53,782 nucleotides of DNA from an uncultured Chitinophagales bacterium (GTDB lineage: Bacteria; Bacteroidota; Ignavibacteria; UBA10030; UBA6906): contig CAZIKE010000006.1 in the NCBI GenBank assembly GCA_964539775.1, positions 8,289 through 62,070 of the forward strand, read 5' to 3'. Position 1 is the first letter of the stretch; every line of letters starts with the position of its first letter. The notes beneath the pieces were generated by a model. It was not told where the DNA came from. It saw nothing but the letters and a program-made list of their open reading frames with translations, and ran no database searches. Made by a program: the position numbers and the translations under genes. Shown in pieces: positions 1,510-3,396 of the stretch.

Positions 1510-1533
1510 GGCTGTTACCTGTTTTCGTTTATA
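1510..1533 (+). repeat. 24-bp direct repeat copy 1 (candidate ECF promoter/operator or att site)
   Basis: GGCTGTTACCTGTTTTCGTTTATA; 23/24 identical to 3321-3344; AAC(1507-1509)-N16-CGT(1526-1528) ECF-type spacing. Confidence 0.85.
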
Positions 1534-1548
1534 GAGGTAGGAAGGCTT

Positions 1549-2250
1549 GTGGCCGCACTGTCCACTAAAGCGTTGGTCCAGCAACTGAAAGACGGGGAGC
1601 GGCGCGCGTGCGCGCATTTGGTGGAGCGGTATCAGGCGCTTCTCGTTCGTGAGGCCATGCGCGTGTTTTCTCTTCGCAGAGACGATGCGCAGGAGGTGGC
1701 CAGTGACGTGCTGTTAGCCGTGGTGAACGGAATCCATGACTTCACCTTCAAGCGGGGCGATGGAGATTTTCACCTGTGGGTGATGGCGATTTTCAGGAAC
1801 AAGGTGCGCGACCTCGTTCGGCAGCAGGCCGTGCGTGGGATGGTGGTGGAACTTGACTCCGGCGCTCTGGTGTATCCCTCCGGGGACGGCCATAGCAGTG
1901 ATTCGGAAAGGCTGGAGTATGAAGTAGCACGAGTGGCCTTTCGGAAGTATCAGGAAGCCCTGGTGCAGCACATGGATGGCGTGGTGGAATCCGACGGCGA
2001 CTATGAGGAAACCGGACCTGTTGCGAGAAAGCTGGTTGCTCTTGCCGATGCGTTGGAGCGACTTGAAGCATGGGAGCGGGTGTTGCTGCGGTGCCGTGCA
2101 CTCGACGTTCCCTACGAGGAGATTGCATCGTACACCGGCAAGCCGGTATCGCACCTGAAGGTCTATCACGCACGGGTGCGGAAGAAGTTCGTGAGAATCC
2201 TTGCGGAGTACTTTCCTGAACTGACTGAGCATGAACAACGATTACCTTAG
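1549..2250 (+). CDS. ECF-type RNA polymerase sigma-70 factor
   Basis: sigma2 region (DDAQEVASDVLL...FHLWVMAIFRNKVRDLVR) and sigma4 region (LERL..ERVLL...PYEEIASYTGKPVSHLKVYHARVRKKF); GTG start after purine-rich RBS; long acidic linker. Confidence 0.85.
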   Translation: MAALSTKALVQQLKDGERRACAHLVERYQALLVREAMRVFSLRRDDAQEVASDVLLAVVNGIHDFTFKRGDGDFHLWVMAIFRNKVRDLVRQQAVRGMVVELDSGALVYPSGDGHSSDSERLEYEVARVAFRKYQEALVQHMDGVVESDGDYEETGPVARKLVALADALERLEAWERVLLRCRALDVPYEEIASYTGKPVSHLKVYHARVRKKFVRILAEYFPELTEHEQRLP

Positions 2251-2830
2251 CACACTGCTTCGCATTGCCTGGCTTGAAGGCTTGGTGAACACACGCGGCG
2301 CATACGAGAAGGCTGTGGCGCGGCGTACGGAGCGGGTCCGGGTGTTGCCGCACGAACGCACTGGCCTCATCGAGCGTCTCGAAACCGCTCTCGCAAGCAG
2401 GAAGGAGGCTGCGCCGCTGACTGTTGGTGCGCTGTTGAAGTCTGTGCGTAGCCGCCGTGGGCTGGCGCCGCAAGAGATTTTCGTTCGCATGGGCGTCACA
2501 AAAAACATCTACACCCTGATGGAGCAGGATGCCATCTCACCACTGAAGATCCCCGCCGAAGCGTGGCAAAGGCTCGTGATTCTTTTGAACATTTCGGTGG
2601 ATGAAATTGCCCAAATCATCCGCCGCACGTGCAGGCTCATAGCATACCGGCCGTCCTTCGGTGGGATGCTTGCACGTTACAAGGGCAAGAAAGGGGGGAA
2701 GAAGAAGATCACATTGGAGAACGCTTATGCTGAATTGTACGCGCGCGCAGAGATTCCTCTTCCCCCAGCTGACGAGAAACGGCTGACTGCCCTGCTCTCG
2801 GAGATGCGATTAACGAGCGGAGAGGGCTGA
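2231..2830 (+). CDS. Protein with central XRE/Cro-like helix-turn-helix (candidate anti-sigma/repressor)
   Basis: 'TVGALLKSVRSRRGLAPQEIFVRMGVTKNIYTLMEQD...P' resembles HTH_3; overlaps the sigma gene by 20 bp. Confidence 0.6.
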   Translation: MNNDYLSTLLRIAWLEGLVNTRGAYEKAVARRTERVRVLPHERTGLIERLETALASRKEAAPLTVGALLKSVRSRRGLAPQEIFVRMGVTKNIYTLMEQDAISPLKIPAEAWQRLVILLNISVDEIAQIIRRTCRLIAYRPSFGGMLARYKGKKGGKKKITLENAYAELYARAEIPLPPADEKRLTALLSEMRLTSGEG

Positions 2831-2832
2831 GA

Positions 2833-3333
2833 ATGACACCCGCCGACTCTTCGATGGAAGCGTTGGGGCGGAGTGCGCAAGCTGCGCGGGAACTCCTGCA
2901 AGCCAGCGGCATTGCATCTAACTGTCTTCCTATCAACGTCGAGCGGATTGCGGAGGCCTTGGGGTTTCGTGTCGTTCGTCTCTTCCAGGTGCCGGAAGAG
3001 TTCTCCGGAATTGTCAGTCCTGCCCACCGCCTCGTAGGCATCAACGGAAACCATCACCAGCACCGGCAGCGCTTTACGCTTGCGCACGAGATCGGCCACG
3101 TCGTCTTGAACCATCCTCCCGAAGGCAGGTGCAGCCTTGCCCGCATCAGCCTGCTCAACCGTGAGGCCGATACGTTCGCTTCGGAGCTTCTCATGCCCAC
3201 CGAAACCCTTCTACCGCTTCTGGCGAGGTTCAAGCATCCGGGGCCGTTGTCTCGTCTGTTTGGTGTGAGCGAGGAGGCCATGACTCTCAAAATCCGTCAG
3301 ATTACTCACCATTGGCCGGGGGCTGTTACCTGA
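2833..3333 (+). CDS. ImmA/IrrE family zinc metallo-endopeptidase (Peptidase M78)
   Basis: 'PINVERIAEALG', 'RQRFTLAHEIGHVVL' (HExxH), 'EADTFASELLMP', 'FGVSEEAM' are all hallmark motifs. Confidence 0.92.
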   Translation: MTPADSSMEALGRSAQAARELLQASGIASNCLPINVERIAEALGFRVVRLFQVPEEFSGIVSPAHRLVGINGNHHQHRQRFTLAHEIGHVVLNHPPEGRCSLARISLLNREADTFASELLMPTETLLPLLARFKHPGPLSRLFGVSEEAMTLKIRQITHHWPGAVT

Positions 3334-3344
3334 TTTCGTTTATA
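3321..3344 (+). repeat. 24-bp direct repeat copy 2 (overlaps IrrE stop; upstream of PUR gene)
   Basis: GGCTGTTACCTGATTTCGTTTATA; the single mismatch versus copy 1 creates the TGA stop at 3331-3333. Confidence 0.85.
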
Positions 3345-3396
3345 TCAGTAGAGGGGGAATCAACAACAATCACTACACATCTCCAAGGAGGTCAGC

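Follow-up and report, generated by a model that had tools for sequence, protein, structure and literature searches.

The stretch of DNA considered here (the window; 53,782 nucleotides of contig CAZIKE010000006.1) comes from an uncultured Chitinophagales bacterium and carries a three-gene cassette. The cassette encodes a sigma factor of the extracytoplasmic function (ECF) type, a 199-aa protein with an XRE-type helix-turn-helix (HTH) and a metallopeptidase of the M78 family. It is bracketed by two direct copies of a repeat, GGCTGTTACCTG(T/A)TTTCGTTTATA, located at positions 1510-1533 and 3321-3344, the second of them in front of a gene for a PUR-like (DUF3276) protein. The two copies most likely represent one conserved and autoregulated ECF-type promoter, whose sigma factor is probably freed by the cleavage of an anti-sigma factor.

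According to the proposed mechanism, copy 1 would drive the operon of the sigma factor, the anti-sigma factor and the peptidase, leading to autoregulation, and copy 2, placed inside the 3′ end of the peptidase gene, would drive the PUR-like gene. The HTH protein would hold the sigma factor by its N-terminal helices in the fashion of an anti-sigma factor. After a signal, the M78 peptidase would cleave the HTH protein, perhaps at an invariant LARY sequence or the lysine-rich loop next to it, as IrrE cuts DdrO. The released sigma factor would then amplify its own operon and switch on a regulon, which in the present genome would include only the PUR-like gene, and in relatives would extend to integron integrases, IS200-type transposases, nucleases and LigT genes.

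The repeat copies are identical in 23 of 24 positions and each continues into three bases followed by GTAG, giving 31 nt with the tail. The initial annotation had described both features, together with a sole mismatch (T1522 versus A3333) which creates the stop codon of the peptidase gene (TGA, 3331-3333), and all of this is confirmed in the sequence. The mismatch falls within the variable N3 of the motif, and the core of copy 2 overlaps the final four codons of the peptidase gene and its stop. None of 100 dinucleotide shuffles of the window contained any match at three or fewer mismatches. The scan of the whole genome (3,644,985 bases in 215 contigs), which had been proposed as a check, gave no third copy at this threshold, and thus two copies in total. 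When scored with a weight matrix derived from relatives, the two copies reach 47.1 and 40.3 bits and the next genomic match 13.7 bits, with the reversed genome, used as a control, topping out at 13.2 bits. The sequencing runs listed as containing the stretch itself are two DNA runs, both from one hot-spring study, and no RNA run is among them.

The element is conserved in front of homologous cassettes, an outcome which the initial annotation had set as a test of its proposals. Of 41 related genomes, 17 encode a homologue of the sigma factor (E <= 1e-10), with sigma identities of 40-69%, and three families of one order share the gene order DinB, regulator, sigma, HTH, peptidase, PUR. Among the 17 oriented loci, from which L018 and L019 were dropped as duplicates of L020 and L021, the motif TGTWACC-N3-(T/A)T(T/G)CGTT is located just 5′ of the sigma start in every case. 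It also precedes the PUR-like gene in 9 of the 11 loci having one; the remaining two are G010 and G031, the latter with PUR directly following the sigma gene. The consensus of the whole element is TGTWACC-N3-WTTCGTT, seven AT-rich bases, TAG and a G-run. The flanks of the motif diverge: among 70 distinct sites there is no conserved position upstream (the information content at positions -14 to -1 does not exceed 0.18 bits), and the unforced downstream positions that are kept are T 8, T 20-21, TAG 26-28 and G 30-31. A profile search with ten closer HTH rows provided 16 related loci, all in metagenome-assembled genomes labelled Ignavibacteria, Ignavibacteriales, Chlorobi, Bacteroidota or Chitinophagales.

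The occurrence of the motif follows that of the cassette. A sample of 61 genomes from the family contains 61 sites with the exact 17-nt pattern and 3 with the reversed one. The 18 genomes encoding the HTH protein hold 51 of these sites and the 43 genomes without it hold 10, some of which appear genuine and lie in incomplete genomes (e.g., G045 and G073). The two cassette genomes without an exact site share one genus, and one of them, G023, has a TTGCGTT variant before its sigma gene. In a sample of the class (201 genomes), the HTH protein was found in 8 genomes, all of one order, with 17 sites there; the other 193 genomes have 24 sites, a number in line with the reversed control, which gives about 25 in the 201 genomes by a hand count. 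Exact sites are frequent only in cassette-carrying genomes. As the genomes are related by descent, these counts are descriptive and carry no statistical test.

Because the motif is specific to cassette genomes, its most probable reader is RNA polymerase with the ECF-type sigma factor of the cassette. An example bearing on this point is G031, a 100% complete genome in which sigma, motif and PUR form one short operon, and in which no homologue of the HTH protein was detected at E <= 1e-3. Since the motif is retained there without such a homologue, it is independent of the HTH protein, and the arrangement favours the sigma factor as its reader. The first option of the initial annotation, a promoter or operator shared by the two copies, stands in part. 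Autoregulation combined with control of the PUR-like gene agrees with the conservation before both genes and with the cassette co-occurrence; the HTH protein, which had been offered as a possible reader of the motif, looks more like an anti-sigma factor, and G031 has the motif without it.

The presence of sigma-2 and sigma-4 domains agrees with membership of the sigma factor in the ECF (group 4) sigma-70 family. The sigma-2 domain covers residues 24-94 (Sigma70_r2, 34.3 bits, cut-off 24) and the sigma-4 domain residues 164-213 (Sigma70_r4_2, 25.1 bits, just below the cut-off of 25.7), and the whole protein scores 60 bits with TIGR02937, against a cut-off of 42.9. The closest solved relative is CnrH. 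Between the two domains lies a linker of about 65 aa that is acidic and variable; region-3 models gave no match at E <= 0.01. At two of the related loci, L008 and L009 (G001 and G005), no in-frame ATG, GTG or TTG lies between the motif and the conserved sigma N-terminus; since the frame is open through the motif and the usual starts are missing, these sigma factors may use a non-canonical start or a shortened N-terminus.

The single-chain model of the 199-aa protein (predicted local distance difference test, pLDDT, 79.5) begins with three helices (residues 3-55), which are followed by an XRE-like core of five helices and by further helices at the C-terminus. The central XRE-type HTH spans approximately residues 65-139 and scores 23.1 bits with HTH_31, below the cut-off of 27. 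This core resembles HipB, SinR and the N-terminal domain of DdrO (template modelling score, TM, 0.65-0.72 over about 60 residues); the whole-chain E-values of the fold search are weak, at 0.2 or above. The LARY sequence occupies residues 147-150 and is followed by the lysine-rich loop, which is of lower model confidence. The gene directly adjoins that of the M78 peptidase, in whose translation the HEIGH (HEXXH) motif is intact.

A model of the complex between the sigma factor and the HTH protein reached an interface score (ipSAE) of 0.84 in three of three runs, compared to 0.00 for the best of three controls, and the mark for this score was attained by 116 out of 157 complexes of solved structure and by 2 out of 215 mismatched pairs; as sigma/anti-sigma complexes exist among the solved structures, the score shows likeness and not binding. 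The runs have at least 91% of contacts in common, with a partner pLDDT of at least 78. In the modelled interface, HTH residues 4-57 lie between sigma domains 2 and 4, where they face residues 13-90 and 158-215 of the sigma factor; in the model, this is the classical position of an anti-sigma factor. The 199-aa protein is therefore modelled as a likely anti-sigma factor on an XRE scaffold. It gave no match to an anti-sigma family of Pfam or NCBIfam, and residues 1-60 contain no His/Cys motif of the zinc type HxxxCxxC. The family to which it belongs is small, with at least 21 clusters in a set of 5.8 billion proteins (E <= 1e-5, among 8000 candidates scored), whose names go no further than "XRE-family regulator" or "hypothetical protein".

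The register of the putative promoter can be derived from the comparison of sites. CGTT is invariant in the 17 sites found by homology, and the letters of TAG are kept in 15 (T), 11 (A) and 14 (G) of them, with an AT-rich stretch in between. Two LigT genes, both of one genus, have their only possible start codons at motif positions 28 and 30. Five sigma genes begin with TTG behind the G-run, and the distance from the element to the sigma start codon is 6-11 nt. The invariance of CGTT, the AT-rich stretch, the LigT starts and the TTG starts together point to a transcription start near motif position 27, at the T-A of TAG. Such a start would make TTCGTT an ordinary ECF-type -10 and would place TGTWACC at about -26 to -20, one helical turn nearer than a -35. 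The gap from AAC/TAC to CGT is 7 nt in 70 of 70 sites, and the normal place of a -35 is unconserved.

A different register was also considered, in which the -35 would be TGTWACC and the -10 TAnTAG, with a spacer of 16 nt between them, and in which the sigma mRNAs would be leaderless. It is disfavoured by the five TTG-start sigma genes and by the LigT starts at positions 28-30; moreover, TAG is less conserved than CGTT, and a G-rich stretch would have to melt. The AAC-N16-CGT arrangement, which the initial annotation had read as ECF-type spacing, is a coincidence of copy 1, as nothing upstream of the motif is conserved. The AAC at 1507-1509 and the GGG at 3318-3320 are present as it described, at positions that are unconserved in relatives. 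The sequence which it took for a conserved spacer is indeed conserved, not as a spacer but as the recognition sequence itself.

The candidate regulon of the relatives was derived from the additional sites; the number of exact sites per cassette genome reaches 14 (14 in G032, 9 in G040). For each extra site, one co-oriented open frame was picked by hand, either the first or the longest of those that begin no more than 350-400 nt downstream, which gave 32 frames; sites without such a frame and chance-like sites in cassette-free genomes were excluded. A Pfam family was assigned at E <= 1e-5 to 26 of the 32 frames, as listed in the table. Four of the eight recombinases are integron integrases according to TIGR02249 (433-463 bits, cut-off 265), and a seventh Y1-like frame scores below its NCBIfam cut-off. 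In the present genome, the PUR-like gene is the only candidate target besides the sigma operon. Many enzymes of the candidate regulon act on single-stranded or damaged DNA, and DNA stress is a plausible candidate for the signal of the switch. At locus L102 (G032:C19:30500-34250), three motif copies occur within 1.2 kb, with an identity reaching about 80 nt past the motif; two of these units are 156 nt apart, and one of the two stands just 5′ of an IS200-type gene. Given the identity beyond the motif and the unit in front of the IS200-type gene, the promoter appears to travel with the repeated unit.

Table. Features of the cassette locus and gene families found downstream of additional motif sites in relatives
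Feature	Position	Strand or orientation	Basis or remark
DinB-family protein	179-664	+	conserved upstream neighbour, context only
Response regulator, HisKA-like helix, without output domain	667-1371	+	conserved upstream neighbour, context only
Copy 1 of the repeat	1510-1540	+	core TGTTACC-TGT-TTTCGTT 1513-1529; AT-rich 1530-1536; GTAG 1537-1540
Copy 1, predicted signals	-10-like TTCGTT 1524-1529; start about 1538-1540	+	sequence comparison; start 10 nt before sigma GTG
ECF-type sigma-70 family factor, 233 aa	1549-2250	+	Pfam, TIGR02937, solved relative, alignment
XRE-type HTH protein, 199 aa (predicted anti-sigma)	2231-2830	+	start overlaps sigma stop by 20 nt
Peptidase_M78 (ImmA/IrrE-type) metallopeptidase, 166 aa	2833-3333	+	Pfam PF06114, 70.9 bits, cut-off 22
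Copy 2 of the repeat	3321-3351	+	core 3324-3340; GTAG 3348-3351; predicted start about 3349-3351
Predicted 5′ leader of PUR-like gene	3352-3396	+	sequence; similar C/A-rich leaders in relatives
PUR-like (DUF3276) protein, 75 aa, single PUR repeat	3397-3624	+	Pfam DUF3276, 38.5 bits
8 tyrosine recombinases, 6 IS200-type Y1 transposases	downstream of extra motif sites	co-oriented	Pfam
2 LigT, 2 GIY-YIG, 2 DUF2851	downstream of extra motif sites	co-oriented	Pfam
2 23S_rRNA_IVP	downstream of extra motif sites	co-oriented	Pfam, both below gathering score
Ferritin, ORF6N, SocA, hydrolase (1 each)	downstream of extra motif sites	co-oriented	Pfam

Several points weigh against the reading of the copies as a promoter of the cassette's sigma factor. 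The conserved blocks are 3 bp apart in the aligned sites, which corresponds to an AAC-to-CGT gap of 7 nt, against 16-17 nt in known ECF promoters, and with such a gap either the register or the reader of one of the blocks is assigned only tentatively. The promoter activity and the start site are predictions made from sequence. The co-occurrence of motif and cassette is confounded by shared descent, the cassette being confined to a single order, and the independence of the motif from the HTH protein comes from one genome, G031. The score of the modelled complex may mirror likeness to solved complexes rather than real binding, and the central XRE-fold domain could still bind the motif. The candidate regulon contains no classical repair genes; its members are mechanical open frames picked by hand, with both LigT cases coming from one genus.

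Among the alternatives, the one which survives best, although it is unlikely, treats the motif as the operator of an XRE-type HTH repressor similar to DdrO, with its radiation/desiccation response motif (RDRM), or to ImmR. The housekeeping sigma factor would then read an overlapping AT-rich -10, the M78 peptidase would cleave the repressor, and the ECF sigma factor would have other targets. Such a system agrees with the likeness of the central fold to HipB, SinR and the DdrO N-terminal domain, with the adjacent peptidase gene, with the co-occurrence of the motif and the HTH protein, and with the TATA-like bases between CGTT and TAG. However, these bases are not accompanied by a conserved -35 at the normal distance, the motif is non-palindromic and always oriented to the downstream gene, and G031 retains it without an HTH homologue. 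No palindromic operator of a dimeric repressor was found, the asymmetric and oriented element being the only conserved DNA element.

It is very unlikely that the element functions at the RNA level, where it would form a common 5′ leader or a processing site and be transcribed from promoters located further upstream. Copy 2 would be included in the operon transcript in the case of read-through, and the G-run with TAG could belong to a mature 5′ end, but pairing is not conserved, and a structure of the Rfam type is not apparent, as judged without an Rfam scan. Furthermore, only 6-11 nt separate the element from the start of the sigma gene, it overlaps the start codons of the LigT genes, and no conserved promoter lies upstream of it.

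A promoter of the -24/-12 type is read by sigma-54, with the consensus TGGCAC-N5-TTGC. The block spacing of the element equals that of this consensus, and a start at A27 would put the blocks at about -25 and -12. The assignment is nevertheless scarcely credible, as 70 of 70 sites have GT and CG where sigma-54 promoters have their invariant dinucleotides GG and GC, and the motif tracks the ECF cassette and not a universal factor. The PUR-like protein, given the purine-rich bottom strand, would be a further, speculative candidate for the reader of the motif.

The second option of the initial annotation, an attL/attR-like duplication caused by the insertion of the 1.8-kb cassette before the PUR gene and excisable to one copy, can be practically dismissed: two direct copies do flank the three genes exactly and the cassette is patchy (18 of 61 family genomes), but the two-copy layout persists across three families whose proteins are 40-70% identical, the motif alone being conserved, further motif copies stand elsewhere before unrelated genes, and the cassette encodes no recombinase. 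The comparison with cassette-free genomes, in which an empty site with one copy had been anticipated, gave a different result. In G009 (99% complete) and G004, which belong to the same genus, the response regulator is joined straight to thioredoxin, with zero motif copies and no PUR paralogue. From these junctions, gain and loss concern the whole four-gene module and not the interval between the repeats. A search for an excision junction, in which contigs of the two runs were compared with positions 1000-4200, revealed no joint, a result of little weight since contigs drop rare variants. A TGACCCTTTC-type sequence 5′ of thioredoxin (3700-3730; L115, L118) is shared with the cassette-free G009 and G004, and marks the right-hand border of the four-gene module.

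The predicted ECF-type switch can be compared with several known systems. In ECF sigma/anti-sigma operons such as sigma-E/RseA, sigma-W/RsiW and CnrH/CnrY, the operon is likewise preceded by its own promoter with AAC-like and CGT-like blocks. The blocks are 7 nt apart in the present element, in contrast to 16-17 in known ECF promoters. The present partner is soluble, contains an XRE HTH and matches no anti-sigma model of Pfam or NCBIfam, and the protease is a cytoplasmic M78 enzyme and not a membrane site-1/site-2 protease. Caulobacter sigma-F type promoters read GTAACC-N16-CGAA. The upstream block of the present element is GTAACC-like, but CGTT follows after 6-7 nt and not after 16.

The pairs IrrE/DdrO of Deinococcus and ImmA/ImmR of ICEBs1 share with the present cassette an M78 HEXXH peptidase encoded beside an XRE-fold protein. 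The HTH protein has, in addition, an invariant Leu-Ala-Arg at a basic loop between C-terminal helices. DdrO is described as cut by IrrE at L106/R107, in the basic loop between its last helices (PMC6868357), and the parallel with LARY and the lysine-rich loop is suggestive only. Unlike in these pairs, the partner considered here carries an added N-terminal part, which in the model binds sigma, and the operon encodes a sigma factor. The present motif is asymmetric and oriented, compared to the palindromic RDRM, and the peptidase of 166 aa is devoid of the extra domains of IrrE.

A third parallel is the control of integron integrases by LexA, as a stress-type regulator site would likewise stand before intI, in the four integrases above the TIGR02249 cut-off. 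SOS control of integron integrases is documented (PMC3108266). In contrast to a LexA repressor box, control by the sigma factor would be positive. A LexA DNA-binding domain was not found in the present genome. However, G000:C87 (L072, 1213-2043) encodes a protein of the CI or non-canonical LexA kind, in which an XRE-type HTH is combined with an S24 peptidase at the C-terminus and whose frame runs into an N stretch; it may be a non-canonical LexA of Bacteroidetes (PMC8565304). Because this protein is present, no claim is made that the sigma module replaces the SOS response.

The combination of an ECF sigma factor, an XRE-type anti-sigma factor and an M78 peptidase had no description in the literature searched, which covered few subscription journals. 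The terms M78, COG2856 and XRE did not occur in the accessible portion of the ECF re-classification (PMC7826278) or in one supplement; that portion mentions HTH neighbours for ECF130 and ECF201 only, and ECF201 is given there as 100% Firmicutes.

Both the anti-sigma/protease switch and the compact promoter geometry would be novel. The fuller proposal is a sigma switch of a kind not described before and confined to one Ignavibacteria-type order, in which the ECF sigma factor is held by an anti-sigma factor on a DdrO/ImmR-like XRE scaffold and is released by the cytoplasmic M78 protease. It would employ a compact promoter, at about -24/-12, of a geometry not known for the sigma-70 family, and in relatives it would provide a LexA-independent drive of integron integrases, Y1 transposases and a PUR-like single-strand binding protein. 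With all these parts taken together, the proposal is tentative and rather unlikely. If true, it would unite ECF sigma/anti-sigma control with ImmA/IrrE-type proteolysis of an XRE protein, which so far have been described separately. It would also offer a first handle on the regulation of integron integrases and IS200-type transposases in Ignavibacteria-type bacteria without a canonical LexA domain. The compact geometry raises the structural question of how an ECF holoenzyme could read such a promoter. Orthogonal ECF sigma/promoter pairs already serve as synthetic switches, and the small size of the system (about 1.8 kb and a 31-nt promoter) suits its study in a heterologous host.

The PUR-like gene of the locus is a divergent second paralogue, with a higher-scoring copy at G000:C68:10026-10247. 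DUF3276 was found in 61 of 61 family genomes, with or without the cassette. All of them have a high-scoring gene (about 100-110 bits), to which most add a second, divergent one (about 35-50 bits); where the cassette is present, it is this divergent copy that follows the motif. At L066 (G058:C309), two tandem PUR-like genes lie behind a single motif copy. The leader of the PUR-like gene starts with the G-run, continues with a C/A-rich stretch nearly without G, and ends with an AGGAGG ribosome-binding site. Such a C/A-rich, nearly G-free leader (3352-3385 in the window) recurs in several genera (L004, L005, L008, L009). On the 3′ side, the PUR-like gene is followed by genes for thioredoxin, a Bax-inhibitor family protein and RmuC. 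The only match resembling a sigma-70 consensus promoter within 1300-4300 (TTGACC, 17 nt, TATATT; 4150-4178) is directly 5′ of the Bax-inhibitor family gene. At the opposite side of the locus, 5′ of the DinB-family gene, a 22-nt unit is repeated 3.5 times head to tail at positions 1-77 of the window.

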